IMG/VR virus record: IMGVR_UViG_3300037310_000404
Location: 1 to 64,000 of that record
DNA length: 64,000 bases
Reading direction: 5' to 3' (one strand)
DNA from: a virus
Positions 2 through 45,626 of this stretch are shown here, piece after piece. Numbering within the stretch: the first letter of the stretch is position 1; every line of letters begins with the position of its first letter. The translations under genes and the position numbers were made by a program. The notes below the pieces were generated by a model, which worked only from the letters and a program-made list of their open reading frames with translations, ran no database searches and was not told the DNA's origin.

Positions 2-682
2 GGATATTCTGGACCAACAGGTACTTCTGGATTTAGTGGTTATTCTGGACCAACAGGTACTTCTGGATTTAGTGGTTATTCTGGACCAACAGGTACTTCT
101 GGATTTAGTGGTTATTCTGGTCCTACTGGAACTTCTGGATTCTCAGGATTCTCAGGACCAACAGGAGTATCTGGATTTAGTGGTTATTCTGGTCCTACTG
201 GAACTTCTGGATTTAGTGGTTATTCTGGACCAACAGGTACTTCTGGATTTAGTGGTTATTCTGGTCCTACTGGAACTTCTGGATTCTCAGGATTCTCAGG
301 ACCAACAGGAGTATCTGGATTTAGTGGTTATAGCGGACCTTCTGGTTTGGCATTTTCTGGATCTAGCGGATATTCTGGCTACAGTGGCCCAACCGGAGTC
401 TCTGGATTTTCTGGGCCAACCGGATCCTCTGGATTCAGTGGATACTCTGGGGAGACTGGTACTTCTGGATTTAGTGGTTATTCTGGACCAACAGGTGTAA
501 GTGGATTCTCTGGTTACTCTGGTCCTACTGGAGTAAGTGGATTTAGTGGTTATTCTGGACCTACGGGAGTAAGTGGTTTTTCAGGTTACAGTGGCCCAAC
601 AGGAGTGAGCGGATTCTCTGGATATTCTGGACCAACAGGTACTTCTGGATTTAGTGGATTTAGCGGCGTTGGCGGAAGCGGC
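2..682 (+). repeat. Coding tandem repeat, ~36-bp unit (GYSGPTGTSGFS variants)
   Basis: Unit such as ggttattctggaccaacaggtacttctggatttagt is repeated with synonymous variation and stays in frame. Confidence 0.95.
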
Positions 683-1054
683 TCCACATATTATATGGAA
701 TTTATTATAGATGGTGCCGGTTCGGTTATAACGTCCGGATCCAAAGGCGTTCTTGAGGTCCCGTATGCATCAACTCCATTATCGTGGACATTGGTAAGCA
801 ATCTATCGGGGTCTCTGTCTGTTGATGTTAGGAGAATAACTTATTCCAACTATATTCTTGAAGGAAATATAACAGCCGCGAGTTCTATAGTCGGATCTGA
901 GAAACCGACCCTTTCATCTCAATCAAAGAATCAGGATACAACTTTAACTACGTGGTCTGGTCTTTCTGCTGGAGACCTACTTCTATTCCACGTAGACGCA
1001 ACACCGGCAACCACAACAAGGGCAACTCTATCTATAAGGGCTCAATTAACCTAA
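2..1054 (+). CDS. Collagen-like (Gly-X-Ser/Thr) fibre protein with C-terminal globular domain; 5' end outside the window
   Basis: The frame of ORF 347..1054 is open from base 2 (GYSGPTGTSGFSGYSG...). Gly every third residue. C-terminal ~120 aa is homologous to the C-terminus of 44449..45393. Ends in TAA overlapping the next ATG. Confidence 0.85.
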   Translation, partial: GYSGPTGTSGFSGYSGPTGTSGFSGYSGPTGTSGFSGYSGPTGTSGFSGFSGPTGVSGFSGYSGPTGTSGFSGYSGPTGTSGFSGYSGPTGTSGFSGFSGPTGVSGFSGYSGPSGLAFSGSSGYSGYSGPTGVSGFSGPTGSSGFSGYSGETGTSGFSGYSGPTGVSGFSGYSGPTGVSGFSGYSGPTGVSGFSGYSGPTGVSGFSGYSGPTGTSGFSGFSGVGGSGSTYYMEFIIDGAGSVITSGSKGVLEVPYASTPLSWTLVSNLSGSLSVDVRRITYSNYILEGNITAASSIVGSEKPTLSSQSKNQDTTLTTWSGLSAGDLLLFHVDATPATTTRATLSIRAQLT

Positions 1055-2372: not shown

Positions 2373-3269
2373 ATGTTTAATATTTTAATTATAAAATTAG
2401 ACGCTAGCGGCGATGTGCTAAGAACCACATCGATACTTGAGGGCTTGGATAAACACTATCCAAGCCCTAAACATATTACGTGGATTACACATAAAAAGAA
2501 TACGCCCATCCTTAATTTTTGTCCGCTTATTGATGAAATTTATGATACGGGTTTTCTGCCGACATCCGTAAAAAAGAAAAAATTTGATGTGGCTATAAAC
2601 TTTGATGAAGATTTAACCGCATGCGACTTGCTTTATAATGTCGATGCAACTAATAAGTTTGGTTTTACTAATCACCAATATAAATACGCCCCAGTCAATG
2701 AACTAAGCGAATACGCCTATAAACTAACCAAGAGCGATAAATTAAAATTCAAATTAAATACCAAAACATATCCGCAGATCATATATGAAATGTGTGGCAT
2801 AACCTGGAATGGTGAGAAGTATGGGATGAGGTATCCACCAAAGCGAAATCATGACTATGTAGCATTAAATACCGAAGTCGGGGATAAGTGGCCTACAAAA
2901 AAATGGTTGGCGTGGGATGATCTAAAAACAAAGCTCGCATCCTCAGGAATTCCCTTTCAAGAACAAAGAAAATTTAATACTCTAGAAGAATACTTTGATT
3001 GGATAGCTGGCGCAAAAGTCGTCGTGACGGGTGATTCTCTTGGAATGCATGCCGCCATAGCGCTTGAGAGACCGACCGTGGCAATCTTTGGGCCTACGGC
3101 TCAAGTGGAAATCGAATCCTATGGCATTGTCGATAAGGTTTTCGTGAATGACTTGAAATGCTCTCCGTGTTATAAGAGTGCTTGCCCATACGCCATGGAA
3201 TGCATGCACGGAATTTCTTCCGATTTAATCCTTAACAAGGTATTGTCCAAATGGCACGAACAGCAATAA
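2373..3269 (+). CDS. Glycosyltransferase family 9 (ADP-heptose heptosyltransferase-like)
   Basis: ILIIKLDASGDVLRT, ITWIT, VVVTGDSLGMHAAIALERPTVAIFGPT and C-terminal CSPC..C....CM motifs typical of GT9. Confidence 0.85.
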   Translation: MFNILIIKLDASGDVLRTTSILEGLDKHYPSPKHITWITHKKNTPILNFCPLIDEIYDTGFLPTSVKKKKFDVAINFDEDLTACDLLYNVDATNKFGFTNHQYKYAPVNELSEYAYKLTKSDKLKFKLNTKTYPQIIYEMCGITWNGEKYGMRYPPKRNHDYVALNTEVGDKWPTKKWLAWDDLKTKLASSGIPFQEQRKFNTLEEYFDWIAGAKVVVTGDSLGMHAAIALERPTVAIFGPTAQVEIESYGIVDKVFVNDLKCSPCYKSACPYAMECMHGISSDLILNKVLSKWHEQQ

Positions 3270-4702
3270 TACTATTGGCATGGAACAAGCTTGAATATAC
3301 CAAGAAGTGCCTTGGTGCGTTATACCACAATACTCCGATAGGGTCTTTTGATCTTATACTTATTGATAATGGTTCATCCGATGGCACTTTAACTTATTTT
3401 ACCGACCTTCAAAAAACACATCCAGAGATTACGGTTTTAAGAAATCCAAAAAATTTGGGATTTGGAAACGCCATGAATCAGGGTATACGGTTGGCATTAG
3501 AAACTGATCACGATAGAGTGTGCTTGCTTAACAATGATACAGAAGTTAGGGATGGATGGCTTAAATCACTAGAACAATGCGCGGATTCGGACCAAAAAAT
3601 TGGTATGGTTCAATCAAATCTTGTTTCATTCGAGGATGGAAGATCTATCAGCTGCGGCGTAGATCTGGATCTTTCCTCTGAGAACTTCTTAAGGCCCATA
3701 GATATTGGTAAAACTGTTCCAGATCTTAGGGGAGTAACTTCGGACAGGTTTTATCTAAATGGCGCTTGTGTATTAATCAAGAAAGAGTTTGTGGAATCAG
3801 TTGGTTTATTTTCTTCTGAATTCTTTCCAGTTTACCATGAGGAAACAGATCTATGCATTCGCGGATATAAGGCTGGCTGGAGAATGGTATTTTGCGGGGA
3901 TTCGGTAGTTCAGCACCATGAGGCTGTTACTGGACATTCGTTGCCGGGCAGAGGCGAGCCAATATTTTGGAATAACTGGAATAAGCTTCTCAACAAGCAT
4001 GCCGCGTATATACACGATTTGGCTCATGAGAGATTTGGCCTAGATGCCGGTATAGAAGAATTACGCAGATTTAATCCATCCATGAGCATAGAAGGCAGCA
4101 GCAAGCTCTTGGCCGAAACATGGAAATCAAAAGATCCAAAGAGCAAAGAAGCCGTCGATAGATTTTATAAGGAATCTAGTGGCTATATAGGGGATCTTCT
4201 CGCATGGAATGCTGGTTCATACAAAAAGGAACTCGTCGATCACGTAATTTATGCATCTCGACATTTTAGTGTTAGATCTATTCTTGACATAGGCGCTGGC
4301 ATACTCAGTGATACGATAAAGCTCCGAAATTCTGGTATCTCAATGACTACGGTTGATTTTGACTCTGAACACTACAGGTTTGGTATCGATCGCCTCGGTT
4401 ATCGCAGGATAAAAGACGTCAATGTGAAATACGTGGGCGATGAACTGCCCAAATGTGATGCGATCATGCTTTTCGATGTCATTGAACATGTGCATGAGCC
4501 AGATAAGTTTCTAGACGCATATGTGGAAAAATCTGACGGGTTTATTTTTATGACTGTTCCTGAAAACTTGCCTCCGGATGAATCGGAAAAGCACCCAATG
4601 CATCTGGTGCAGTACGCCGACTTCTGGAAACAAATACCTCAATATTTAGAACAAAAGCATGGATTCAAAAGAGTTGATTTGATCACATTCAAAAAAGACT
4701 AA
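3251..4702 (+). CDS. GT2 glycosyltransferase fused to SAM-dependent methyltransferase domain
   Basis: N-terminal ILIDNGSSDGT, NLGFGNAMNQG, LLNNDT, EETDLC motifs; C-terminal ILDIGAG and LFDVIEHVHEP motifs. Confidence 0.85.
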   Translation: MARTAIILLAWNKLEYTKKCLGALYHNTPIGSFDLILIDNGSSDGTLTYFTDLQKTHPEITVLRNPKNLGFGNAMNQGIRLALETDHDRVCLLNNDTEVRDGWLKSLEQCADSDQKIGMVQSNLVSFEDGRSISCGVDLDLSSENFLRPIDIGKTVPDLRGVTSDRFYLNGACVLIKKEFVESVGLFSSEFFPVYHEETDLCIRGYKAGWRMVFCGDSVVQHHEAVTGHSLPGRGEPIFWNNWNKLLNKHAAYIHDLAHERFGLDAGIEELRRFNPSMSIEGSSKLLAETWKSKDPKSKEAVDRFYKESSGYIGDLLAWNAGSYKKELVDHVIYASRHFSVRSILDIGAGILSDTIKLRNSGISMTTVDFDSEHYRFGIDRLGYRRIKDVNVKYVGDELPKCDAIMLFDVIEHVHEPDKFLDAYVEKSDGFIFMTVPENLPPDESEKHPMHLVQYADFWKQIPQYLEQKHGFKRVDLITFKKD

Positions 4703-4703
4703 T

Positions 4704-6629
4704 ATGAAAATTTTAATGGTTGGATTTGATGCGCCGTGGATTAATACGGGTTTCGCTGCAACTCTAAGAGCTGTGGGTGGCGAGCTATTGAAAAGAGGGC
4801 ACCAGGTTTATAGCATAAGCGGAAACTTTGTGTTCGAGACAGACGGGCCGATACTTCATAATGGCATCATTGTGCTTTCAAACAAAGGGATGATGTATCC
4901 TGATACAGGTACATTTTTAAGGCATTACAATGAAGTAAATCCGGATATTGTCATAGCCCATAATGATTTTTATCGTATTAAGTACTTCTCGAAGCTTTCT
5001 GAAGATATCTTAGATAAAACTCTAGTTTGGCTGCCGATTGAAGACACTGATAGCCTTGGCGAATTAGAGGGGTTGCGCAAATTAAAGAATATAGCCTTTA
5101 CGACTAAGTACGGAATGAATTTATATAAAAGGCTACTTCCTGAGCAGCGTTTGTTTCAAATAAACCATCAAATAGGAATCACCGACGCCTCTGACCCGAT
5201 TCCATCCATTGATATGGATAAATTAACTAATAAATTCGTGGTTTTGAGGGTTGACCGCAATCAGGAACGCAAAAACTGGCCACATACCCTGGAATCTTTT
5301 CAAAGTTTTATAAAAAATGATTGTATAAAGGATGCAATTTTAATTGCAAAAACACGTAAAAAAGATGTTGCGAGCAGTATAGATCTCGGGGAATTAGTTA
5401 AAAAACTTGAAATTGAAGATAACGTTATTTTTGTCGAGAATGAGCTTACATCTCCTCAAATGCGCTGGCTCTACGAAAGTGCCGATGTGTTTTTATCAAC
5501 TACCGGCTCTGAGGGTTTTGGGCTTTCTATCGGAGAGGCCATGGCGTGCGGCAAGCCAATTTTGTGCACAGGATGCGCTCCTCTTTTTGATGTTGTTGGC
5601 CGTGGCGCTGGATCCTTCATTAATGTAGTTGGTAAAGAATACAATACCAATGTGCATGTCTCATATAACAAAGTAGATATCGCTCATGCCGCCAAGTTGC
5701 TGGCAGATTATTATGCCGATTGGAAAAATGGCGGATCCGTAATAGCCAAAGAAGGCTTGGTGGCAAAACGGCACGCCAACGCATATAAGATAGAAAGAGT
5801 TGTGGATGATTTCGAATCCGCCTTTGAAAAGATGTCAAAGCCATATAAAAAGGTTTTGGTGTCCGTAGCAACAAGAAATAGACCAGACGCTCTCGTGGCA
5901 TTGCTTACGTCATTGTTTAATCAGGCCTACAAGAATATATCTATTTATATCTTTGATAATTCTGATAACGAGGATTTATTAAAGAACAATGCGTTCTTGA
6001 AGCAGATGAAGCTGTTTAATGATTCCGGGCAAACTGCTTGTGTTTGGAAGAACAATGAACAAAATTGCCCCGATACTCATCAGAAAATATTTGATCTTGC
6101 CAAGAAAGTTGGCTGCGAGTTTGTGTTCAAGGTTGATGATGACTGCATACTTGAGTCGAACACCATCGAAGTTTTAATGGATGATATTCAACAGGATGAT
6201 AAAATAGCTGCCGTGGGTTGTTCTATATTGGAACCGGATAAGCTAACAAACAAGATCATGCCTATCGATTATCCTGCGCAAACCCTGGCTAACTTATGGT
6301 ATAACCGCCAATGGATGTGGGATAAAGAATTAAAGCAGACTGAGGTTGAACATCTTTACTCGTCCTTTATCTACAGGACGTCTGCAATGGATGCTGTGGG
6401 CGGATTTGCTGGCGGCCTGAGCAAGGTGGCGTTCAGGGAAGAAACATTAACGACATATCCAATGGTTTTAAAGGGTTGGAAGTTACACTATAATCCAGCT
6501 GCTATCATGTGGCATATGAAATCAGATCGCGGCGGGTGCAGAGATTTTCATATCGAAGAGCTATATAAAAGAGACGAAGCCATATTTAATGAACGAATTA
6601 AAAAGATGAAGGAAGATAATAATGCCTGA
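4704..6629 (+). CDS. Bifunctional GT4 (GT-B) plus GT2-like (GT-A) glycosyltransferase
   Basis: YESADVFLSTTGSEGFGLSIGEAMACGKPI is the GT4 EX7E signature; second domain VATRNR, IFDNS, FKVDDDC. Confidence 0.85.
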   Translation: MKILMVGFDAPWINTGFAATLRAVGGELLKRGHQVYSISGNFVFETDGPILHNGIIVLSNKGMMYPDTGTFLRHYNEVNPDIVIAHNDFYRIKYFSKLSEDILDKTLVWLPIEDTDSLGELEGLRKLKNIAFTTKYGMNLYKRLLPEQRLFQINHQIGITDASDPIPSIDMDKLTNKFVVLRVDRNQERKNWPHTLESFQSFIKNDCIKDAILIAKTRKKDVASSIDLGELVKKLEIEDNVIFVENELTSPQMRWLYESADVFLSTTGSEGFGLSIGEAMACGKPILCTGCAPLFDVVGRGAGSFINVVGKEYNTNVHVSYNKVDIAHAAKLLADYYADWKNGGSVIAKEGLVAKRHANAYKIERVVDDFESAFEKMSKPYKKVLVSVATRNRPDALVALLTSLFNQAYKNISIYIFDNSDNEDLLKNNAFLKQMKLFNDSGQTACVWKNNEQNCPDTHQKIFDLAKKVGCEFVFKVDDDCILESNTIEVLMDDIQQDDKIAAVGCSILEPDKLTNKIMPIDYPAQTLANLWYNRQWMWDKELKQTEVEHLYSSFIYRTSAMDAVGGFAGGLSKVAFREETLTTYPMVLKGWKLHYNPAAIMWHMKSDRGGCRDFHIEELYKRDEAIFNERIKKMKEDNNA

Positions 6630-7548
6630 CTATTTCAGAGGCGAGACTATATCGCTAACAGCTAATTACCTGGATTCTGGCTCATCGCCAATCAATACTG
6701 GTATTTCTGGAAACACTGTAGATGTTTATTACTACACATCTAGCGGTTCTAAGAATTTTTATGTGACTTCTGGAACAATGACTCAGGACGTAGATTATCC
6801 AAACAGGTTCTTTTATATGTGGCAAATACCGGCCACTGCCCCTGTCACCAATTATACGGCCCAGTATAACGCTCTCATGTCTGGAAATATCATACAAAGT
6901 ACTGATGTTTTTGGTGTTAGCCAGGCTGTAGCTACAACTGGAATTGTTGTTGGTAGCGTAACCGTATCGGGATCAATTGTCGATATCAGCGGAACCGGCA
7001 TCCAAAATGCATACGTACAAGTTGCTGATTTTTCATCTTCTCAGATTATAACCTCAACAACCACCAACGCGAGCGGCGTCTATTACGTATACCTAGATCC
7101 AGCCGACTACATCGTGGTTGCGGGCGCTTCAACTTATCTATCAAATAGCGTGGCAAAAACTGTCCCAACCGGCATGACGACATATAATTTTGGACCAATC
7201 ACATTGCTATCTTCCATCGGAACCGGCGCTGTTGCAATGTCTGATACGTATACTTACGTTGATCCTAATGACGGCTTAACGTATGGCCTTGGCAATCTAA
7301 AGGTATCCCTGTTTGCCAAAGTCACATCGCCAGTTTTGACCAGTGCTCTTGCCATAACAAGAACGGATGCAAGCGGCACATTTAATATGACGGCCAACAA
7401 TGGTGAATACGTTCTTAGAATTGAGGGCAATGGTCCCAATAATACGGTATTCGATACGGCATACGATATCGAGGTAAGTGATGCCTTTACTTCCGGAACC
7501 CCACTAGGTTTCAGATATGAAGGGACATCTCAATATAAATTTATCTAA
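6622..7548 (+). CDS. Ig-like / carboxypeptidase-regulatory-like domain virion protein
   Basis: VTVSGSIVD...TTTNASGVY..L.PADY and TRTDASGTF motifs; Ser-Gly rich. Confidence 0.6.
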   Translation: MPDYFRGETISLTANYLDSGSSPINTGISGNTVDVYYYTSSGSKNFYVTSGTMTQDVDYPNRFFYMWQIPATAPVTNYTAQYNALMSGNIIQSTDVFGVSQAVATTGIVVGSVTVSGSIVDISGTGIQNAYVQVADFSSSQIITSTTTNASGVYYVYLDPADYIVVAGASTYLSNSVAKTVPTGMTTYNFGPITLLSSIGTGAVAMSDTYTYVDPNDGLTYGLGNLKVSLFAKVTSPVLTSALAITRTDASGTFNMTANNGEYVLRIEGNGPNNTVFDTAYDIEVSDAFTSGTPLGFRYEGTSQYKFI

Positions 7549-11631: not shown

Positions 11632-12399
11632 ATGCCGCCAAAAAATTGTAAAATCACAGACTCTAACGGAAATCCAATTGGAGATAATCCAATCAGAACC
11701 CATCGGTCATATATTGACTGCGTTGGGGGCGGTAATCCTTTGCAATCTTCTTTAAATAACTGCTACCTTCAGACATCTCTTGGTTATGATCCAGTTACGG
11801 GGCAGCCTTTAACCGTTTTTGATGAACAAATAAATAGAGAAAAGCAGATTCTCGAAACACTGGGAGAGCTAGTTCTTATTTATAGAAGGCTTATTGTTCC
11901 TGACAAAACGATAGATAGTCGTCGCTGCATATGCTGGGACCCTGTTAGAAAACAAGCCCGTTCAAGCTGTCCTTATTGCAATGGATTTGGAGTTGTTTCC
12001 AATGATCCAAACATTAACAGGGTCGGCGGATTCCAGTGGCTTAGAAATCCCGAAAGAGACGATTCAATGTTCTTTGTCAATGAGGGAATGACGGCGCAGA
12101 AGCTTCAGTCAAATGATATTGGACTACAGATCAATCATCAATTGCATTTTTGGACTGTTCCGATCAGAAATTGCGATGGTGATTATGTTAATATCATTGA
12201 CGAGCGAGATATCATGATAAGATTTATATTCGACAGAGAAACAAAGACCGCAATCCGCGAGCTCGGAAGATATGAAATGACCAACGTCTCATACTCATTG
12301 GCCCAAGATAATTTCCTAATGCATATGGAATGGGATGCAAAGAGACTCGATCCAGGAATTTCGCAGCAGGAGTTTGGGCTTCCGAACTGGCTCTCTTAA
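11632..12399 (+). CDS. Putative neck / head-closure protein with Cys zinc-binding motif
   Basis: RCICWD...CPYCNGFG motif, beta-rich C-terminus (ERDIMIRF...RYEMTNVS), position between adaptor and terminator. Confidence 0.55.
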   Translation: MPPKNCKITDSNGNPIGDNPIRTHRSYIDCVGGGNPLQSSLNNCYLQTSLGYDPVTGQPLTVFDEQINREKQILETLGELVLIYRRLIVPDKTIDSRRCICWDPVRKQARSSCPYCNGFGVVSNDPNINRVGGFQWLRNPERDDSMFFVNEGMTAQKLQSNDIGLQINHQLHFWTVPIRNCDGDYVNIIDERDIMIRFIFDRETKTAIRELGRYEMTNVSYSLAQDNFLMHMEWDAKRLDPGISQQEFGLPNWLS

Positions 12400-13313
12400 T
12401 GGATGACATGAGAAAAAAATTACACGTAAACAAAGTTAGACATGAATGCATTAATAGAAATATTAAATTCATGGATAGTGTGTTTAATGGCGTCAGGGCC
12501 AGACATAACTTTTTCTGTGTAAAGCATAAAAAGACATATGCAACTAATTATAATAATTTGATTCAGGCTGGCGGTTGCAATTTGCCATGCTGTGCAACTC
12601 ATGAGTTTAAAAAATATACATTAAAAGAGGTCAAGGATAAGTGCGATTCTATTAATATAGAATTTATTGATAAAAAATACCTCGGAAGAACGCACAAGCA
12701 TAAATTTAAATGCATTAAACATGGAGAAATTTATACAAAATCCCTTGCAGATATTTTGCACAAGGATAGAGTTTTAAGATGCTGTAATCTAGATAGTAAG
12801 TTCAGAAAATATAAACTAATAGCTAAAAAGCGCGGATTCATGGTGCTGGATAGTAAGTATAAAAATTTGGATTCAAAATATGCGACTAGATGCTTGAGGC
12901 ATAACGAGGTCCATCAGGCTCGGCTCATAAATATAGTAAGGGCAAACAGTCAGGGAATTCATTGTTGCTGGATAAATATGAAGAGAAGATCTGGCGATAA
13001 TCACCCAAACTATAATCCAAATTTGACCAAACAGGAAAGATTGGGAAATCGTAGCAAGTGCAAATCCTGGCGTTTTAGGATATACAAGTTATTTGACAAT
13101 ACCTGCGATGCCTGCGGATCAGTTGGTCTTATTGGTATAAATCGTATAGCTCACCATATAGAATCATATATGTCAAATAAAAAATTGAGGTTTGATATAA
13201 ATAATGGGGCTTGCTTGTGCTCTGAGTGTCATGACTCTTTTCATAAAACATACGGCTATGGTAATAATACCCGAGCCCAGTATGATGAATTCAAATCCAA
13301 GGTAATAGCATAA
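12399..13313 (+). CDS. HNH homing endonuclease with Cys/His zinc-ribbon repeats
   Basis: CDACG...AHHIESY...RFDINNGACLCSECHDSFH HNH motif; repeated C.KH units; start by TAATG coupling at 12399. Confidence 0.85.
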   Translation: MDDMRKKLHVNKVRHECINRNIKFMDSVFNGVRARHNFFCVKHKKTYATNYNNLIQAGGCNLPCCATHEFKKYTLKEVKDKCDSINIEFIDKKYLGRTHKHKFKCIKHGEIYTKSLADILHKDRVLRCCNLDSKFRKYKLIAKKRGFMVLDSKYKNLDSKYATRCLRHNEVHQARLINIVRANSQGIHCCWINMKRRSGDNHPNYNPNLTKQERLGNRSKCKSWRFRIYKLFDNTCDACGSVGLIGINRIAHHIESYMSNKKLRFDINNGACLCSECHDSFHKTYGYGNNTRAQYDEFKSKVIA

Positions 13314-13315
13314 CT

Positions 13316-14509
13316 ATGGCCTACGTATTAAATAAGAAAATAATCACTAAACGAATCATCGATGTCTTGGTAGATTTTCTAAAACAAAATCTTTCAAGAA
13401 ATCGCCTGTATCGCCATGTTGATATTTCTGACAGATTCCCGTTGGAGCAGGTTCAAATTCCGATGGTCGTAATACGCTCCGTAACTAATAATCAAAGAAG
13501 AATACACTTTGATGATTTTATGGAAGATTACCATAGTCGCGTTACTCTTGTCCCTGTTCAGGCTGACGATAACCTTTACGGCAATAATATGGCCCAGGTT
13601 AATCTGCCGGAAACGTTAGACTATGATCCAAGATGGCCATGGGATGTTAGCGTCGGATATCCGAGCGGTACAGATATAACACAAACCATATTCACATCCG
13701 GAAACGTATTCAATTCTGGCGTGGATACTGGAATAATCATAACAGTTCCCGGGTCTGGCACATTTGATCCAAGCTCGATTATGTTTGCTGATGAAAACCG
13801 TCAATCTGTTGGGTCTCCAAGCCTTATCACTGGAAACAACACCTATACACTAACATTATCACAGGCGGTTACGAATGATCAGTTTTATTTAAATGTAACC
13901 GGAACAGATATGACTGGCACTGTTGCTTTGGCGGTAGAACCAAATCAAATGATTGTAAACGGAAGTGGCATTGCATCTGGATTGTCTGGAACCAGAATTT
14001 TTATGTCCGATATTCTTTTCGCCGGAGATCAATACCAGCTTAACACAACACCAAATGAAGAATTGGCATATGCTATTTATGGCGGCATTTACAATATGAG
14101 CATTTCTATTGATTGCTATGCCCGTACAACTATAGAAGCAGAAGAGCTCGGTGATATTATTGAGGATATTTTAACCGCTAGAAAACTAGATTTTTATGAT
14201 AGAACTGGGGCTTCTATAACTTCTCAGTCCCAGGGTGGCGGAACTGAGAGGGAATACGCAAACGAGCATTTGTTCCAAACTAGCGTAAGTATTGAGTTAT
14301 TTAAAGAATGGCAAGAATACAGATCTGTAACCACCATTCTGTCGGCAAGTGGTACAGCAATTCCAAATGGCATCTACTCGGGGACATACGTGGCTCCCGG
14401 AGTTTACACCATAACAGCCCTAGATCAGGCTGGAGTGGATGCATACTTTAGCTCCTACGTTGGCTGGTCCGGAACTGGCGCTAACATACAAACATTCCAG
14501 ATTAATTAA
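13316..14509 (+). CDS. Tail terminator / tail completion protein with inserted beta domain
   Basis: IDVLVDFLK...ISDRFP...IPMVVIR N-terminus and SISIDCYARTTIEAEELGDII C-terminus; immediately upstream of the sheath. Confidence 0.6.
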   Translation: MAYVLNKKIITKRIIDVLVDFLKQNLSRNRLYRHVDISDRFPLEQVQIPMVVIRSVTNNQRRIHFDDFMEDYHSRVTLVPVQADDNLYGNNMAQVNLPETLDYDPRWPWDVSVGYPSGTDITQTIFTSGNVFNSGVDTGIIITVPGSGTFDPSSIMFADENRQSVGSPSLITGNNTYTLTLSQAVTNDQFYLNVTGTDMTGTVALAVEPNQMIVNGSGIASGLSGTRIFMSDILFAGDQYQLNTTPNEELAYAIYGGIYNMSISIDCYARTTIEAEELGDIIEDILTARKLDFYDRTGASITSQSQGGGTEREYANEHLFQTSVSIELFKEWQEYRSVTTILSASGTAIPNGIYSGTYVAPGVYTITALDQAGVDAYFSSYVGWSGTGANIQTFQIN

Positions 14510-14692: not shown

Positions 14693-16834
14693 ATGGCATA
14701 CACACCTCCTGGCGTTTATACGGAAGTTGAAATAGCTAACAATATCGTCCAGCTCCCTGGTGGCACGAGAATTCCGGCATTTATTGGAACCGGTAGAAAA
14801 TATCTAAGCATCGCCGGAGAGACTCAGACTCAGGCAACAAACAGACTGGTCACTCTCTCGAACATACCAGTCAGAAGCATCGATAACATTTATGACTTCT
14901 CGGGTTCAGGCGGCGCGTTAACTGTTTATCCATCTTCTGGAAACGGGGCTTATGGAAGCGGCTGGTATCAGAGTGGAAATCAGGTCGCCTGGACTTCTGC
15001 TGCCAACGAGCACCCTGCGTCCACCACGCCGCAGATTGGCGATTCATATTTCGCAACTTATGTCTATACTGGAATTAGCTTCACCGGTGCTGGATTATTT
15101 AATGCAGCTGCTGCTGGATCTGTTCTATACGCACCAACACTTTCAGGAACTGCTGCTGGATCATCGCTTCTAATACCGAATGTAGAAACAATCCTAAACG
15201 TGTATAGCGGAAACTCCACCAGCTCAGGATCATTCCCTGCTACCGGAATTTCCGCAAGCGGTGATGGATGGTTCCAGTCCGGATCATCACTAATCTGGAC
15301 GAATGGATCTGCTACTGATTTTGCAGCCTCGTCTGGGGTCGGTACCGTTCCAGCAAGCGGAGCAACCTACTATGTTGCCTTCACTTACACTGGAACTGTT
15401 TTTGGACAAACATTTACACAAACCTCTGCTTACGAAAATGATTTCGTCTTCACTGGAGCAATTGCTTCAGGAGATACTGTTGTAAGCGGAGTTGTAGCAG
15501 TATCCGGATCAGCAACGACCTATCCTGCCTCCGGAACCGTGTCTGGAACCGATTCTTCTGGATACGGTATAGACGACAGCGGATGGTATCTGTCCGGAAC
15601 ATCGGCACCTCAGTCTTTGGCATGGAATCCGGTCAATCCTTCGGCCTATGGATATCCCCCGTCAACCGTAGTGCCAATCTCTGGTGTTTTCTATATCGAT
15701 TACACATACGATAAGAGCTCTACTGATTATGAGCCAAAGAATTTCACGGATTATACCCAGGTTGTTAGTGAATATGGTCCTGATGCAGAGTGGACACTTG
15801 TTACTACGGGAACCAACGCTGGCTCTTATGATTTTGCCAGCCTGAATCCGTTAACTCTTGCTTCTAGATTAGCATTCGCAAACGGAGCCTCGATCGTCAG
15901 CCTAACTCAGATGTCTGGTAATGGGCTAACAACTGGTGAGTTCCAGAATGCCTTGAATCAGTTGCAAGCAAAGACGATTGACGTCATTGTTCCTCTAACT
16001 GTTGGAAGCGGTGCAAGTCTGACCGAAATCAGCATACCTACAAAATCTAGCATCTTGAGCGCAGTTGATATCCACTGCCAGACCATGTCTCTCCCTCAGA
16101 ATAAGAAGGAGCGCGTATCGATTGGATCGCTTGGAGTTGCTGAAATCGGGGACGTAGATACCGAAAATACCTACGTCTATACTGCCAGTGAGGTTCTTAG
16201 CGACAAGCGCATTGCTCTTGTTGCTCCTGGTAAGTGTTTAGTGGAAATCCAAGATCCAAACGGAGAGTTCCAGCAGGTCGAAGTTGACGGAGCATTCATG
16301 GCTGTTGCCGCTTCTGCTCTTTCATGCAATCCAAACTTCGACGTTGCAACTCCGCTAACCAATAAGCAGTTCGTCGGATTCGATAATATATCGGCAAGAA
16401 CAGCTGATCATCCAAACTCAGAATATCTTGAGTCAGAAAAGAACATATTGGCTGCAGCTGGTGTCTTTGTAATCGACAGAACCGGTTCGAGAATCTTCGT
16501 CAGACATCAGCTGACGACTGATCAGACCAATGTTGCAGTTGGTGAATTCTCGGTAGTAACGACAACAGACTATGTTTCGCAGGCTGTTCGTTACACCACC
16601 GAGCAGTTCATCGGTAAGAAGTTGATAAACGCCATCGTTGTTCCGGCCGTTAAGTCGACAATCTTGGCAACGATGCAGCAGTTGATTCAGGCCGCGATCA
16701 TCAATGCGGTTGGAGCAATCACGGTTCAGGTCGATCCAAACAACCCGACCCAGATTCTGTCGACTGTTCAGTACGTTCCAGTCTTCCCATTGAATAGAAT
16801 TAAAGTTACGTTCACAATTCGTACGCAGCTATAA
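14693..16834 (+). CDS. Tail sheath protein
   Basis: RBS AAGGAG. Starts MAYTPPGVYTEVE; C-terminal sheath core (LTNKQFVGF, ILAAAGVFVI, YVPVFPLNRIKVTF). Confidence 0.93.
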   Translation: MAYTPPGVYTEVEIANNIVQLPGGTRIPAFIGTGRKYLSIAGETQTQATNRLVTLSNIPVRSIDNIYDFSGSGGALTVYPSSGNGAYGSGWYQSGNQVAWTSAANEHPASTTPQIGDSYFATYVYTGISFTGAGLFNAAAAGSVLYAPTLSGTAAGSSLLIPNVETILNVYSGNSTSSGSFPATGISASGDGWFQSGSSLIWTNGSATDFAASSGVGTVPASGATYYVAFTYTGTVFGQTFTQTSAYENDFVFTGAIASGDTVVSGVVAVSGSATTYPASGTVSGTDSSGYGIDDSGWYLSGTSAPQSLAWNPVNPSAYGYPPSTVVPISGVFYIDYTYDKSSTDYEPKNFTDYTQVVSEYGPDAEWTLVTTGTNAGSYDFASLNPLTLASRLAFANGASIVSLTQMSGNGLTTGEFQNALNQLQAKTIDVIVPLTVGSGASLTEISIPTKSSILSAVDIHCQTMSLPQNKKERVSIGSLGVAEIGDVDTENTYVYTASEVLSDKRIALVAPGKCLVEIQDPNGEFQQVEVDGAFMAVAASALSCNPNFDVATPLTNKQFVGFDNISARTADHPNSEYLESEKNILAAAGVFVIDRTGSRIFVRHQLTTDQTNVAVGEFSVVTTTDYVSQAVRYTTEQFIGKKLINAIVVPAVKSTILATMQQLIQAAIINAVGAITVQVDPNNPTQILSTVQYVPVFPLNRIKVTFTIRTQL

Positions 16835-20876: not shown

Positions 20877-22760
20877 ATGGCTGATCCGAACATCCCAAAT
20901 GTAGATCCTGCATTAATGAACTCTTTCCAAACCATGAAAGAGCAGTCTACTCAAGTTGCAAACAACATGAAGCAGGCCGTCGGCGCATTGAGTACCATGG
21001 CCGATGAGATGGAGGATTTTGCCGGGGAAACTACTAATTACCTAAAACAATTAGGTCAAATTCAGACTTACGGTCAGGGTTTAGCCAAAGCAGACAAGGC
21101 TCATTTAGAAGCGGTTAGGAGACAGCTTGAGAGTCAAAGAGGCATGGTCTCCGTAACCAAACAGCTATCTGATATAAACAAGGCCAATCTTGCAATCAAC
21201 AAACAACAGATAGATAATTTGAGGGAACAAGGCAAGTATATCAGAGCCAACATGAAAGAGTGGTCTCAAGGATTTAGAAATCCTGAGACTGGAAAGTTCT
21301 CGGCTGGATCCACATCTCAAAAAGTAATGGAGACTGCCCAGAACCCTCAGGCTCAACTAGAAAATCTTGGTGGTCCGTGGGGCATGTTGATAAAGTTCAT
21401 CATTGATACAATTGACGGAATTAGAAAACTAAGATCTGAATTACAGGCCGCCGATGCTGCGAGTGGAAATTTTGTAAAGGGTATGGGTGAGGCATCCAAG
21501 GCCGCTATGAACCTGAAGCAATCTCAAATGGAGTTTGCTACTCAAGGGTTAGATGTTGAGCAAGTAGCCGATATGTATAAGGCTTTAAAGGCTACTGGCA
21601 TAGATGCTCTCGGAGCAATCAGCCCAACGGTCGGGAAGCTTTCTGAGATGGCTGATGCCGTTAATATATTCTCCAAGGCTACCGGTGAAGGCTATGATGC
21701 CGTTGCTGGTAGGTTTGCCGACTTTATCCGTAATTTTGGTATAGCCAAGAGTGACGTAAAAGCCAAGTACTTTGAGATATTAAAGACGGCTGAAGCTGTT
21801 GGTCAAAAAGGAATTATGACCACATCAAAGTATATGCAGAGCGTCATGTCTCTTGCTGATGCTTTTAAAGATGTTGGTGTAAACGTAACGGATGTAAACA
21901 AGGTTCTATCAACCGTATCTACAACAATGGTAAAAATGGGCAGACCTGCAGAAAATATTCAAAAGGTTGCCCAGGGAATTATGGGTATATCCAAGGCTGG
22001 CGAAGGTTGGAAAGTGTTCATGGCCAAGATGTCTGGCGTTCAGGGTGGCTATGCTCAGTCGTTATTTGCCGCCGAGCAGCGTGGCGCTGGGTTTGACTTG
22101 ACCAAGGCCGGAAAACAAGATGTTGGAAAAATGATAGCCATGGCGCGAGCGGCAATATTGCAACCAACAGCCGGGATAGGCGATACTGCCACGAGGCGTC
22201 TAATGATTGAAAGAATGGGATCTCAATTCGGAATGGATGCTGAAACAACGCAGGTGTTCCAAAAGTTATCCGAGGGCGCAATATCTCAGGAGCAGGCTGC
22301 CGGAAGCATTGAGAAGCTTAGAGAGGCTGCTCAAAAGTACAATCTTGACTCAAAGGGCATGTTCGACATTATAAGAAATATCTTAACAGGACTTATTGCC
22401 AAGCCGATCATCATGATCTATAGAATCCTTTCAAACTGGAAGGGTTCGGCTGCGGATAAAAAAATGGCTGGCGATATGGACAAAGCCATTAATAAGGGAG
22501 CGGCCGGAGGTGCCTATATAAAGAGCGGCGGAATGTTAAGAGTTCATGCTAACGAGGTTGTTGGAGGTGGTATGGTTGTTCCTGCCGCGCAAACCAGATC
22601 TTTAACCACGGCCGATCTTCGACGCGGCGGTCAGGGTAGCTTTAATATCAATGTTAATGTGAATATGGACGGAAATACGCTTCATAAAGCATTTCAGGAA
22701 GCTGAAAGCAAAACAGTTGCTATGATCAGAAAGCAACAGAAAGCTAATTTCGGGGGATAA
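20877..22760 (+). CDS. Tape measure protein
   Basis: Ala/Gln/Met/Lys-rich and helical; downstream of the chaperone; C-terminal GGMLRVHANE-type motif; precedes baseplate genes. Confidence 0.75.
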   Translation: MADPNIPNVDPALMNSFQTMKEQSTQVANNMKQAVGALSTMADEMEDFAGETTNYLKQLGQIQTYGQGLAKADKAHLEAVRRQLESQRGMVSVTKQLSDINKANLAINKQQIDNLREQGKYIRANMKEWSQGFRNPETGKFSAGSTSQKVMETAQNPQAQLENLGGPWGMLIKFIIDTIDGIRKLRSELQAADAASGNFVKGMGEASKAAMNLKQSQMEFATQGLDVEQVADMYKALKATGIDALGAISPTVGKLSEMADAVNIFSKATGEGYDAVAGRFADFIRNFGIAKSDVKAKYFEILKTAEAVGQKGIMTTSKYMQSVMSLADAFKDVGVNVTDVNKVLSTVSTTMVKMGRPAENIQKVAQGIMGISKAGEGWKVFMAKMSGVQGGYAQSLFAAEQRGAGFDLTKAGKQDVGKMIAMARAAILQPTAGIGDTATRRLMIERMGSQFGMDAETTQVFQKLSEGAISQEQAAGSIEKLREAAQKYNLDSKGMFDIIRNILTGLIAKPIIMIYRILSNWKGSAADKKMAGDMDKAINKGAAGGAYIKSGGMLRVHANEVVGGGMVVPAAQTRSLTTADLRRGGQGSFNINVNVNMDGNTLHKAFQEAESKTVAMIRKQQKANFGG

Positions 22761-22763
22761 TAG

Positions 22764-23630
22764 ATGTCTTCCTTTTTACCTGTAGATGTAAATAAAATAT
22801 CTACACTAGTATCGAATGTAACGCAATCATTGCCTCCAACCCTTTCTCAGGCAGTAGGTAATGCTTTGCCTGTTGGACAAATAGGCTCATCCACAATAGT
22901 CAACAATTTGCAGAGGCTGGCTAATCAGGTTGTTCCTGGAGCTGGAAGCCTAATCCAGCAGCAGTCGGCATTTCCATATAAAAAACAGGTTAGCTTTATG
23001 CTTCTGGATCGAAATGGCGCTCCACTGGCAACTCCGGCTGGTAATAATGAAAACTTTCAACCAGGATACTTCTTCAAGATGTTTGTTAACCCAAGCAACT
23101 TTTCTGTGACACTGCCGCCAAAAACGATAGTACCAGTAAGGACTTTGGGCGGATGGAAAATGCAGCATTGGTATCCGGACATTGGTTCTATACGGGCAGA
23201 CGGAATTATTGGTAATATGCTTGAAAGATTCAATAGAGATCTTAAGGACTCCACGGCATGGAGACAGTTTCAAAAATTGGTAACAGTCTACCAGCAAAAT
23301 GGAGTTCCATATAGTCCTCCCGGATCTAATAATGCAAACAGGCAATCGCTTCAGGCTTTATTTGCCCCAACCGCAGTTTGTATATATGATAGAGTTAGAT
23401 ACGACGGATACTTTGAAAGCTTCGAATATACGGAATCAGAAGAGACTCCTCATACTGTACGGTATGGTTTAAACTTTAGATTCTTGCAATACATGGATTT
23501 GGCGGATATTCCTGGCATAACCAGATCCGCCTCTGTCGATGCGAGCGTTTTAAATGCAATTATTCCACAATCTCGTGTTAATCAGGTTCAATCTGATATA
23601 ACAAAGATGTTTAGCTCAATAAAACTATAA
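22764..23630 (+). CDS. Baseplate tail-tube initiator (tube-fold) protein
   Basis: FKMFVNPSNFSV...RTLGGW..QHW...I.ADG and YDGYFESFEYTESEE pattern; follows the tape measure. Confidence 0.65.
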   Translation: MSSFLPVDVNKISTLVSNVTQSLPPTLSQAVGNALPVGQIGSSTIVNNLQRLANQVVPGAGSLIQQQSAFPYKKQVSFMLLDRNGAPLATPAGNNENFQPGYFFKMFVNPSNFSVTLPPKTIVPVRTLGGWKMQHWYPDIGSIRADGIIGNMLERFNRDLKDSTAWRQFQKLVTVYQQNGVPYSPPGSNNANRQSLQALFAPTAVCIYDRVRYDGYFESFEYTESEETPHTVRYGLNFRFLQYMDLADIPGITRSASVDASVLNAIIPQSRVNQVQSDITKMFSSIKL

Positions 23631-26600
23631 TGGCAGATGCAACATTTAACAAAATAAATAACGGCCGAGTTCATATGTTCTATAGTTCAGAACATAGTGA
23701 TCCGGATGCTTTGGTTATATTAAATCGTGGAACGGAATTCGAGCAGGACGTTACAGGAGACTTGATTGCGTTCAATACTAATAACTCAATTGATAGTATT
23801 ACCGGAAGTTTCACGGTTACGTTGGATAATAAGAATGACCATTTAGTTAATAGATTCAACTTTTCCAAGATAAAGAAGATGAGCTCTATTGAAATATTTG
23901 TAAAGCCTCTTCAGAACGACACTAGCGCCAAAGATCCAAATGCCGGATCTCAGACAATAATGATCCCACAGAAGAGTGGCTCAGAGAAACAAACCCTCAA
24001 CAAGGTAATCGATGATACTTATGGTAGCGGAATAACTCCGGATCAAAGAAATAATATATTAAGACAGATACGCGACATGAACAGCATGAGAACAGCCCCG
24101 GTGCTAGCCATGCGAATAGACAAGCAAGGAATGTTTCGTCAAGGCTATGATCTTACAAGAACAGAAACCCCGCTCGACACTAGGCTGCTATTTTCTAAAA
24201 TAGCCGATTCCAATAGCAACTTTACTATGATATTGGCTAAGGGCATAAATGATATATATTCGGAAGATGCTTTTCAACTTTCATTTTACTCTACTGGCGT
24301 CAAAACACCGGCTGAGGCGGTGTTTTTCATAAAAAATATTGTAGCAGAAAAAACTATACCGTTGCCATCTGATCCGGATGCCGAGCTTGGAGATACAGAT
24401 AGGTCGATTTCTTTAAAAGTTCCAATACCACCCAATTTATATCAAAGGGTATTTTTTGGTGTTGTTCTTAACGTTAATAACTCGGTGGCTCCTGCTGGCG
24501 GTTTAACCGTCAATCTAAACGGTAAAGGGGTCGGTTATTGGCTAGAAGCATCCGTAATCAATTTGAATCCTGGTGGCTATGAACAAACGGTGACGGGATT
24601 GAATTTAAGTGTTTTTGCTAATCGTTTTGCGGAAAGAAAAGCTCTGGATATTTTTAGAGAGTTGCTTAGCGTTAGTACCGGTGATTTACCAGCCACCACT
24701 AATTTAAATTTAAACACTCTCCAGACTAGCGCTGAATACTTGCAACTAAGAGGAGAGCCCGATCCGAATAATCCTGATAATAATCTGGGGTCTACCTTAA
24801 AGAATCTTTATGGGGGATCTCTAAGATTTTTAGATGAAAACGGCGATGAGATAACCGATCGCAAGATAACGTTGCGCAGCACAACAAATCCTCAAAAAAT
24901 AAATGAGCTGAACTATAAATTGGAAAGAGTCTATAAGGGATTTGCTCTTCAGTCTGATGCCGCGACCCCGGATATAAAAACAACATTAAAAGATAAAGAT
25001 TGGCTTGCGCTAAGTATAGAATACAATAAAAATGCTGCATCGCTAAAAACAGCCGCTGATAAGTTGGTATCTTTAAACACAAAGATAGATCAGGCTCTGG
25101 CTAATGGACAATCCAGTTCTGATGTTGACAAGAAATATAAGAAAGATCTTAACGCTATCCAATCAAATGTAAACTCCCTAGAGAAGAAAAGGGACGAATT
25201 ACGCGAAAAATTGAGTAAAAATGACAGAGTGAAAGAGCAGATTGAGGCAGTAGAGGTTACGCGCAAAGAAATCCAAGATCAGATGCAGGTTTCATTGTCA
25301 ACTAGCGGCAGAACAAACTTCCTTAAACAGTTCGGAATCATTCAGCATTGGAAGAAGATATTTGCGCAGCTAATACTAGAGGTAATGGACAATGACTCCT
25401 TCTTAAATAATATCTACCCATTCAATTATATGTTTAAGGAACCACAGCCATCCTTAGACGGTGATTATGTTTCAAAAGCAACACTTGGCCAACAAATAGC
25501 GGATTATTTAAACTATGAATTCTATTTTGATGCGAATGGACATTTTGTACTTAAGCCGCCTTTGTACCATCTGGATTATGATGATACGAATGCACTTTAT
25601 ATAATAAATGATGATGACGTTGTGTCCTTCAGCTGTAATGACACCGTCGATGGCATTATTACAAGGATTGGTGTAGCTGGAGATTATCGCGAGTCACCCG
25701 GCATAGAAAAGACAATTATCTATAATATTTTCCAGGACATGCGACTCATAAGAGATTACGGGTTTCACGCCAAAGAAATAAACAACCTATATTTCATTAA
25801 TAATAATTCTGACGCAAGAGATTTTGGGCAATCGTTTATGGCCAGGAATAATATGAATCTCTTTAACGCCTCTGTGACGATAAACGGACGTCCTGGCATG
25901 AGAATAGGTACAGTTGTTTATCTAAAACCAAGAGATACAGTTTATTACATCAGAGAAATATCCCATGAATTCTCGGTTGGCGGAACATTCCAAACAACAC
26001 TGACACTAATCGGCGGAAGAAGAATATTACAAGGATTCCCATCAACAAGCGAAATAACCAAGTTTGAAAGGGTTAGAACAGATATTTTTACTCAAAATGG
26101 GCAAAGAACTTCTGGAACAGTCAACAGAGAAGTGGGTAAATATACAATAACCCACTATATTCTGTCGGACGGATTTAATGCCGAATCAATTGCTGAAAAC
26201 GAGATAGCTCAGGGTATTCCGGACGGACAACAGCAACAGGCCGCAAATACGCAGGCTGCAGTTGGTGGTGGTCCGACGAAAGAAAAACAGTCTATTATTC
26301 TTAGAAATGCATATCAGATATCTAGCCACTATAACCAGGCGTTGATAGGATTAATCGTGCTACCCGAAAAGGATCAGAGCAATAATGCTATTGCTGATAT
26401 TAATATAGCTAATTATAATTTTTTAAAGAACCTATCTGTAACGAGTGTTCCGCCGGTGACAAATGTATTGGATCTATCTGCTACGAAAAAACAAAAGGCC
26501 ATTGATATTATAGGCGAGTCATTTGACATCTTTCTTGCAGAGCGTGATATCACCAAAGATAATGCTGGCTCCAAGTTCACTGTTTTGGTAAAGGATGAAT

Positions 26601-27049
26601 TTGTTAGATCATTCTTAAAAGAAATGCAAGATGCTATCACCGAAGATGGGGGCCTGAGCAAAGCAATAAAAATACAATATCAGGATGCTTCTATTATATT
26701 TAATAGAATCATTAACGACTTAGATAATAACGGAACGTATAAGCAAATAACCGATCAGACCGGCAGGGAGCTTCCGGCATATCAGAACTTTGGTCTTAGC
26801 CTTTACATACAAAATTCCAGTTTTGCTGTTAATAGCGCCGTGGAGAATACTAATCTTCTTGAGAGTGCAAGGAATAATGCCACCAAAGAAAACGCTATCA
26901 AGCAAGCAGCAAGATCTCTGTCTGGAACCCATAATCCAAATGGGGAAGCGTTAAAGAAAATCCTTGAAATTAATTTCAAGAAATACAGTTTTGATTCTGT
27001 GCAACAACCACCAACTAATGAAGGCAAGCAACCGGGAGCCTCCCAATGA
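23630..27049 (+). CDS. Baseplate hub protein (gp27/gpD-like) with large insertions
   Basis: SITGSFTVTL, RVFFGVV, YEFYFDANGHFVLKPP and ASVTINGRPGMRIG...YYIREISHEFSVGGTFQTTLTL motifs. Confidence 0.75.
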   Translation: MADATFNKINNGRVHMFYSSEHSDPDALVILNRGTEFEQDVTGDLIAFNTNNSIDSITGSFTVTLDNKNDHLVNRFNFSKIKKMSSIEIFVKPLQNDTSAKDPNAGSQTIMIPQKSGSEKQTLNKVIDDTYGSGITPDQRNNILRQIRDMNSMRTAPVLAMRIDKQGMFRQGYDLTRTETPLDTRLLFSKIADSNSNFTMILAKGINDIYSEDAFQLSFYSTGVKTPAEAVFFIKNIVAEKTIPLPSDPDAELGDTDRSISLKVPIPPNLYQRVFFGVVLNVNNSVAPAGGLTVNLNGKGVGYWLEASVINLNPGGYEQTVTGLNLSVFANRFAERKALDIFRELLSVSTGDLPATTNLNLNTLQTSAEYLQLRGEPDPNNPDNNLGSTLKNLYGGSLRFLDENGDEITDRKITLRSTTNPQKINELNYKLERVYKGFALQSDAATPDIKTTLKDKDWLALSIEYNKNAASLKTAADKLVSLNTKIDQALANGQSSSDVDKKYKKDLNAIQSNVNSLEKKRDELREKLSKNDRVKEQIEAVEVTRKEIQDQMQVSLSTSGRTNFLKQFGIIQHWKKIFAQLILEVMDNDSFLNNIYPFNYMFKEPQPSLDGDYVSKATLGQQIADYLNYEFYFDANGHFVLKPPLYHLDYDDTNALYIINDDDVVSFSCNDTVDGIITRIGVAGDYRESPGIEKTIIYNIFQDMRLIRDYGFHAKEINNLYFINNNSDARDFGQSFMARNNMNLFNASVTINGRPGMRIGTVVYLKPRDTVYYIREISHEFSVGGTFQTTLTLIGGRRILQGFPSTSEITKFERVRTDIFTQNGQRTSGTVNREVGKYTITHYILSDGFNAESIAENEIAQGIPDGQQQQAANTQAAVGGGPTKEKQSIILRNAYQISSHYNQALIGLIVLPEKDQSNNAIADINIANYNFLKNLSVTSVPPVTNVLDLSATKKQKAIDIIGESFDIFLAERDITKDNAGSKFTVLVKDEFVRSFLKEMQDAITEDGGLSKAIKIQYQDASIIFNRIINDLDNNGTYKQITDQTGRELPAYQNFGLSLYIQNSSFAVNSAVENTNLLESARNNATKENAIKQAARSLSGTHNPNGEALKKILEINFKKYSFDSVQQPPTNEGKQPGASQ

Positions 27050-45393: not shown

Positions 45394-45626
45394 TGGCCGC
45401 GTACGATATTTTATACTACGACTTTCCGGGACATCAACATTTTCTAGATGGTGGTATAATTACAATAAAACCAAGCGGGGCTGCATGGACTGAAGAAGAG
45501 CTGTCTCTTGGCGTAAAAGTTTCATTAGATCTTGAAGACTGGCAATTGCAAGAAATAGTTCCTAATATTATAGATTTTAAGGTGAATAATAAACCAAATC
45601 CATCATCTCTGATCAGAGGAAGATAA
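45393..45626 (+). CDS. Small hypothetical protein
   Basis: 77 aa, TAATG-coupled at both ends. Confidence 0.65.
   Translation: MAAYDILYYDFPGHQHFLDGGIITIKPSGAAWTEEELSLGVKVSLDLEDWQLQEIVPNIIDFKVNNKPNPSSLIRGR

Follow-up and report, generated by a model that had tools for sequence, protein, structure and literature searches.

A predicted tail sheath with a Ser-Gly-rich outer insertion

The sequence analyzed here, hereafter the window, comprises positions 1 to 64,000 of the 127-kb IMG/VR phage record IMGVR_UViG_3300037310_000404, which is estimated to be 66% complete. Its genes lie nearly all on the + strand and make up a virion module, within which an open reading frame at 14693-16834 (+ strand) encodes a 713-aa protein with an N-terminal region rich in the dipeptide Ser-Gly (SG). 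On the evidence of sequence and structure prediction, this protein is a contractile tail sheath. The Pfam family Phage_sheath_1C (PF17482) matches residues 617-710 above cut-off (E 1e-08), and the AlphaFold2 (AF2) model of the full protein (predicted local distance difference test score [pLDDT] 86.6) retrieved in Foldseek, as top matches, the sheaths of phi812, pyocin R2, the antifeeding prophage (AFP) and the Photorhabdus virulence cassette (PVC), with a probability of 1.00, E values down to 1e-16 and template modeling (TM) scores, by target, of up to 0.73. By tblastn, only the sheath core (residues ~330-710) was matched, to Bacillus phage G and to cluster-C-like mycobacteriophage sheaths. 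A PHROGs search of the sheath, of the 397-aa protein encoded upstream of it and of the fibers returned nothing informative.

Like the sheaths of phi812, T4 (gp18), pyocin R2, AFP and PVC, the window protein combines a core bearing Phage_sheath_1C with variable domains inserted near the N-terminus; in sheath structures, such extra domains face outward. The insertion spans residues 40-345 (14810-15727, + strand) and is rich in Ser, Gly and Thr and poor in charged residues, with 21 SG dipeptides and 8 in the reverse order (GS; z ~6.9 for SG). A first-pass annotation, made from the letters of the window, had drawn attention to this region, counting by hand about 21 SG and about 8 GS in the insertion and only 2 SG in the core. 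These figures proved exact for residues 40-340 (14810-15710), and they withstood the composition-preserving shuffling that the annotation had proposed: SG is expected 6.11 ± 2.12 times, and 0 of 20,000 shuffles reached 21. GS stands at chance level (8 against 6.09 expected, p 0.25), and the SG-minus-GS difference has a p of ~1e-4. The core (residues 346-713) does hold 2 SG against 1.6 expected, which is no excess (p 0.49). With GS at its chance level, the SG excess cannot be put down to Ser and Gly clustering in loops.

SG is the sole strongly over-represented common dipeptide in the insertion. Other residues before Gly occur near expectation (TG 5 observed and 4.7 expected, AG 4 and 4.4, NG 2 and 1.8, DG 1 and 1.7); the insertion has 36 Thr to 48 Ser, yet TG does not rise. 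The serines of the 21 SG pairs draw on all six Ser codons (TCT 5, TCA 4, TCC 4, TCG 1, AGC 6, AGT 1), and homologous positions of the repeats described below mix the TCN and AGY codon families. The signal therefore resides at the level of the protein, and a DNA-level cause in the form of a repeated hexamer was rejected on these grounds. As a separate property of the coding sequence, the Gly codon of the pair is GGA in 15 of 21 cases, and the palindrome TCCGGA encodes four of the 21 pairs (window positions 15278, 15503, 15530 and 15593).

The insertion is a triplicated outer domain

Repeat analysis resolves the insertion into three tandem copies, ~95 aa each, of the sheath's own small outer domain (all + strand). 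Repeat 1 (residues 47-132; 14831-15088) and repeat 2 (residues 151-240; 15143-15412) were delimited by local alignments, jackhmmer and hidden Markov model (HMM) domain hits and a repeat alignment. Repeat 3 (residues 254-346; 15452-15730) was recognized by HMM hits, and its C-terminal half is the conserved strand that precedes the core. Jackhmmer finds this half of the unit (P..G..YY..Y.Y.K) conserved throughout the sheath family, the short members of which have a single copy of the outer domain. The family-wide pre-core strand within the repeat unit, together with the single copy in short members, indicates that the insertion arose by duplication of the sheath's own outer domain. Two copies (~600 aa) instead of three are present in the homologues P0007 and P0010 and in that of the related phage G002 (L009, 10001-11809).

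A consensus drawn from 14 repeat copies in five proteins (...YSG.G....YP.SG....G.GW.LSG...I.W....YP.ST.P..G..FY..Y.YSGT) contains 4-5 SG positions per unit. In the window sheath, 10 of the 21 SG dipeptides fall in register at four repeat positions (82/280, 89/189/296, 94/196/301 and 222/330). The motifs at these positions are YPxSG (82 and 280), GSGW/ASGDGW/DSGW (89, 189 and 296), W[YF]xSG (94, 196 and 301) and PxSG (222 and 330). The AF2 model places 14 of the 21 SG serines in loops, 5 at strand edges, 1 inside a strand and 1 in a helix, with the partner glycines in loops in 18 of 21 cases; in every repeat, a β-hairpin has W[YF]xSG at its tip. Mapped in this way, 19 of the 21 serines are predicted to occupy loops or strand edges of the outer domain. 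An AF2 model of a single repeat, built from the 14-row alignment, was too poor for a fold search (pLDDT 49), and an ESM Atlas search with the insertion gave no lead (feature scores at most 0.82, TM at most 0.31).

The Ser-Gly signature is conserved and specific to one sheath clade

About 10 proteins among 1.84 billion representatives have this insertion. The homologues comprise four with 40-45% identity in the insertion, plus five from an exhaustive search, and the SG excess is kept in all 10 sheaths that carry it (z 2.4-7.7). Across eight full-length homologues, conservation is 0.56 for the Ser of SG and 0.26 for the remaining Ser (Mann-Whitney p 0.001); the Gly of SG reaches 0.73, and mean site identity is 0.42. 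Before a retained Gly, the homologues have Ser 78 times, Thr 8, Pro 6, Ala 4, and Val, Leu and Asp 2 each. Replacement of Ser by Pro or Ala with retention of Gly is seen at site 72, where the window sheath has Ser and four homologues have Pro, and at sites 89 and 296. In 12 distant single-domain sheaths selected for having the pre-core Gly, the residue before it is Ile, Ser, Asn, Val, Thr, Ala, Ala, Glu, Glu, Thr, Val and Thr; by this sequence comparison, the Gly is ancient and the Ser that precedes it a novelty of the clade.

No SG excess was found in 86 other N-terminal insertions of the sheath family (at least 150 aa), which have a mean z of 0.48 with none above 3 and, when pooled, 475 SG against 393 expected and 584 GS. 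The excess is thus specific to this domain clade, and the idea that it is a general property of sheath insertions was rejected. Compared with known sheaths, the window protein has the small outer domain of its family in three tandem copies, with a strong, conserved SG signature that is without counterpart in these 86 insertions.

Across the sheath family (994 members found), N-terminal insertions are extremely variable, with P0013-P0155 ranging from 376 to 2138 aa on a ~370-aa core. In large members, the small outer domain, present three times in the window sheath, has other domains nested within it. A peptide-pattern search for relatives in viral contigs found none when based on a single protein and two useful records only when based on an alignment.

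Ser-Gly excess in other proteins of the phage

A surplus of SG over GS recurs in several further products of the window, all encoded on the + strand. The 397-aa protein upstream of the sheath (13316-14509), termed a terminator in the first-pass annotation, has 10 SG and 3 GS (z 4.9); its orthologues in two related phages have SG:GS counts of 10:1 and 7:1, with about half of the SG sites conserved and two Ser-to-Thr changes. A 308-aa protein with CarboxypepD_reg-like β-sandwich domains (Pfam; 6622-7548) has 10 SG and 4 GS (z 4.3), with counts of 9:7 and 12:3 in the two related phages and, again, about half of the sites conserved. The 1093-aa protein encoded after the baseplate wedge gene (33511-36792) has 21 SG and 12 GS (z 4.6; 18:7 in the G002 orthologue). 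Highest in z among these is the 1053-aa fiber (36870-40031), with 42 SG and 19 GS (z 7.1; 34:21 in G002), many of its SG lying in two reused motifs, SG.NDLGS...P[WF]...YA and SGD[ST]M.G.L, that open with the dipeptide. Searches of isolated phages with this fiber (tblastn) gave marginal matches only, and hence no comparator for the fiber module from a phage lacking glycosyltransferases (GTs). Occurrence of the sheath repeat in the other SG-rich proteins was rejected at jackhmmer sensitivity, no homology being detected.

Two collagen-like genes contribute many more SG pairs: one at 2-1054 (+ strand), with its 5′ end open (Pfam Collagen E 3.7e-34; 60 SG, 8 GS), and a second, fiber gene at 44449-45393 (+ strand; E 2.4e-13; 32 SG, 6 GS). 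In their G-X-Y triplets, Y is Ser in 55 of 75 and Thr in 17 of 75 for the former, and Ser in 18 of 24 and Thr in 5 of 24 for the latter. Uninterrupted runs measure 39, 36 and 24 triplets of the type G-[FYP]-[ST], with X mostly Phe, Tyr or Pro (GFS-GYS-GPT-GTS units). The direction of the SG bias in these genes follows from the triplet register. Both genes continue after the repeats into a shared C-terminal globular domain of ~120 aa, and G002 has a 920-aa homologue.

The first-pass annotation had SG recurring in all fibers. Its wider claim of recurrence beyond the sheath holds for the 397-aa, 308-aa and 1093-aa proteins, the 1053-aa fiber and the collagen-like genes, but not for every fiber: three fiber-like genes have no directional bias (40048-43575, 31:32; 48141-50597, 11:13; 45626-46360, 3:8), and two other genes show a weak excess (50600-53164, 18:6; 53186-55783, 18:12). 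SG is sparse, as the annotation stated, in a 722-aa protein (5) and likewise in the products of 20877-22760 (3) and 23630-27049 (5). Its description of the enrichment as confined to surface domains is a fair one. Without the collagen-like genes, the SG:GS count of the window is 262:192 (1.36), hardly different from that of the genes beyond 64 kb (82:63, 1.30).

Glycosylation genes in the window phage and its relatives

Three genes with Pfam matches above curated cut-offs, all on the + strand, encode predicted GTs: a GT9 gene (2373-3269), a GT2 and methyltransferase gene (3251-4702) and a GT4 and GT2 gene (4704-6629). They lie inside the structural module and adjoin the collagen-like gene with Ser or Thr at Y. 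A second sugar island at 69.5-78 kb encodes, according to Pfam, GT2, GT9-like, HAD, PfkB, nucleotidyltransferase (NTase)-RpiB, C-methyltransferase and GMD-type dehydratase proteins.

The first-pass annotation proposed a comparison with homologues from GT-less phages, which the available relatives allow only approximately. G002 (205 kb, 90% complete) has the structural module in common at 30-68% identity, and the SG excess is retained there in the same set of proteins. A protein search of the whole G002 record found no match to the window GT9, the GT2-methyltransferase, the island GT9-like protein, the island GT2 or NTase-RpiB; the sixth glycosylation gene searched gave a weak match only (26%), to the GT4 domain. 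G002 has GT2, GT9 and GT4 genes of its own at 91 kb and 132-137 kb. Since these are unrelated in sequence to those of the window, the sugar machinery evidently turns over against a background of structural genes that keep their synteny. The loci concerned, at 91-92 kb and 132-138 kb of G002:C1 (L012, L014, L017, L019 and L020), comprise one GT2, one GT9 and three GT4 genes.

A second relative, G001, is a 36-kb fragment (19% complete) that runs from terminase to baseplate without any GT; its SG:GS counts are 18:7 in the sheath and 10:1 in the 397-aa protein. In the P0002 contig, a 634-aa gene overlaps the gene for the 308-aa CarboxypepD_reg protein in the same arrangement as the GT4-GT2 gene of the window, and that phage probably has a GT4-GT2 gene as well. 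No GT-free complete relative was found among the clade records recovered. The SG pattern, as far as these genomes can tell, does not track one transferase lineage, in a comparison set made up of relatives that have other GTs or are fragmentary.

A structural or physicochemical role for Ser before Gly is favored

Enriched, directional, conserved, clade-specific and placed in loops or at strand ends, the sheath SG dipeptides call for an explanation. The excess is real, and we lean toward the view that it is a selected, lineage-specific habit of outward-facing, charge-poor β-domains, which place Ser just before a turn-forming Gly. Its role, we suspect, is structural or physicochemical, serving tight turns and a hydroxyl-rich, uncharged surface, rather than that of a modification site. 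The Gly of the turn would be an old structural requirement of the outer β-domain; as the surface became charge-poor and rich in Ser, Thr and Gly, the residue before it would have become Ser, replacing the Asn, Asp, Glu or Thr of distant homologues. Since the insertion consists of three tandem outer-domain copies with 4-5 SG positions per ~95-aa unit, triplication would have amplified the sheath count, and the SG of the fibers would have two sources, the G-X-Ser triplets of the collagens and a shaft module used repeatedly. Support comes from the SG in register across three repeats, from the loop placement, from the better conservation of Gly than of Ser, from the antiquity of the Gly alone in distant sheaths and from the sites at which Pro or Ala stands in for Ser. 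SG also persists in G002, without orthologues of the window GTs, and in the GT-less G001 fragment, and collagen triplets and fiber motifs explain a large part of the counts outside the sheath. Several points weigh against a structural role. A pure turn motif would be expected among the 86 other sheath insertions, none of which has it, and would favor NG and DG, neither of which is enriched in the insertion. Moreover, the preference for Ser before Gly occurs in the sheath repeat, the 397-aa, 308-aa and 1093-aa proteins and the fiber, among which no homology was detected, and this hints at a virion-wide factor; several GTs are encoded by each of the two clade genomes of adequate completeness.

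The first-pass annotation had proposed that x-Ser-Gly marks acceptor sites for the phage GTs. We regard it as rather unlikely that these serines, or some of them, are O-glycosylation acceptors for phage-encoded GTs on virion surface proteins. A soluble GT acting on domains that are folded, or still folding, could reach exposed serines in tight loops before Gly. The neighborhood of the structural GT9, GT2-methyltransferase and GT4-GT2 genes with a collagen-like gene is in keeping with it, as is the second island with its sugar-related enzymes. So, too, is the character of the excess: it concerns Ser and not Thr (TG stays at expectation), runs in one direction, is conserved and specific to the clade, and lies in loops of the outermost domain. 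Ser and Thr outnumber Pro and Ala before retained Gly, Ser-to-Thr swaps occur in the 397-aa orthologues, and the use of six codons points to selection on the protein. Against this, G002 keeps SG although, of the six glycosylation genes searched, five have no orthologue there and the sixth has a weak match, its own GTs being different genes elsewhere; the motif did not follow a cognate transferase into this relative, in a comparison that the other GTs of G002 keep from being a clean one. Homologues have Pro, Ala, Val or Leu in place of several of the SG serines, three fiber-like surface proteins lack the bias, and any glycan on these serines is hypothetical. A broader proposal, also doubtful in our judgment, would treat the exposed-loop Ser-Gly and the collagen G-X-Ser as a shared O-glycosylation acceptor context on the virion proteins of the clade, with the outer domain triplicated for more sites. 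It is quite improbable that the counts merely reflect the copying of a few ancestral SG units (the sheath domain three times, the fiber module ~19 times, and collagen triplets), the dipeptide itself being free of selection. Nearly half of the sheath SG are in register, collagen triplets explain 92 SG and the fiber motifs start with SG, all as copying would predict. The repeats, however, are only 20-35% identical to one another and nonetheless retain SG, eleven further sheath SG are out of register, SG serines are better conserved than other serines across homologues 40-60% identical (p 0.001), TCN and AGY codons both occur at homologous positions, and in three phages the excess extends to the 397-aa and 308-aa proteins, which are not repetitive. 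From these sequence comparisons, the conservation and codon data largely exclude a pure copy-number artifact. We give equally little credence to another surface function for Ser before Gly, such as a different modification, or hydroxyl-rich loops that would bind host polysaccharide. In composition, the outer domains have few charged residues and much Ser, Thr, Gly and Tyr, and the conserved W[YF]xSG and YPxSG may recall sugar-binding loops, if only in a general way, but no family, fold or Atlas match to a binding domain was obtained.

Comparison with known protein glycosylation systems

Precedents for modified Ser in comparable contexts bear on the acceptor proposal. In animal proteoglycans, Ser-Gly with acidic neighbors is the site of xylosylation, a eukaryotic modification of the Golgi. 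The window proteins are alike in the dipeptide context, but the phage GTs belong to GT2, GT4 and GT9, and hardly any acidic residues surround the SG pairs of the sheath insertion. In bacteria, collagen-like glycoproteins, of which BclA is an example, have G-X-Y repeats whose Y residue bears a hydroxyl; in the window collagens, Phe, Tyr and Pro prevail at X and Ser at Y, and their glycosylation is putative.

A parallel in enzyme family is offered by the bacterial autotransporter heptosyltransferases (BAHTs) TibC and AAH, with their substrates TibA and AIDA-I. TibC, which is of the GT9 type, heptosylates Ser but not Thr in the loops of the TibA repeat β-helix, and one mapped site, Ser-313, lies in NSGG (PMC4358343). 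This favors the acceptor proposal, whereas in enterotoxigenic Escherichia coli the reported O-glycosylation motifs have Asn or Thr beside the modified residue and not Gly (PMC5000012). The phage GT9 and the BAHTs are alike in their GT9-type fold, and BAHTs are Ser-specific on many loop serines of repetitive β-structure; their substrates have no SG consensus. At 298 aa, the phage GT9 starts at the canonical Rossmann N-lobe strand of the family (MFNILIIKLDASGDV) and is without the N-terminal β-barrel that occupies residues 1-97 of TibC. Near its C-terminus, a four-Cys cluster (C-x2-C-x4-C-x5-C, residues ~262-276) recalls the iron finger of TibC (Cys-339/342/358/370) in concept and differs from it in spacing. 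The best PDB matches of the phage GT9 are WaaC (E 3.6e-05) and WaaF, and TibC is not among its matches at E up to 1; proximity to the lipopolysaccharide heptosyltransferase WaaC, not to TibC, speaks against the acceptor proposal.

Glycosylation of virions by phage enzymes has itself been established: phage-encoded GTs modify capsid and tail proteins of the mycobacteriophages Che8, Corndog and Myrna, according to Freeman et al. 2023 as cited in PMC12363180, which lends the acceptor proposal general plausibility. The GT families and hosts of those phages differ from those of the window phage. We know of no SG motif from work on mycobacteriophage virion glycosylation.

In short, a triplicated sheath outer domain carries a conserved, directional, Ser-specific and clade-specific SG signature. 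Were the serines glycan acceptors, virion glycosylation sites would become predictable from sequence in uncultured phages, and glycosylation of virion proteins, for which a few mycobacteriophages are so far the only demonstrated cases, would extend to a contractile sheath and to fibers. Under the broader proposal of a shared acceptor context, a glycosylation motif would for the first time be defined by sequence in a tailed phage. If the role is structural, as we favor, a small triplicated sheath outer domain is defined by a clean sequence signature, and dipeptide statistics alone cannot tell a sequon from a lineage-specific turn preference.

Homing-endonuclease-type genes in the tail module

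Genes of homing-endonuclease type occur within the tail module of the window and of one relative. Two genes upstream of the window sheath, the product of 12330-13313 has a weak HNH match (E 0.0013). In the 11.6-kb ENA contig of P0004, a weak GIY-YIG gene (5592-6413) lies directly 3′ of the sheath gene.

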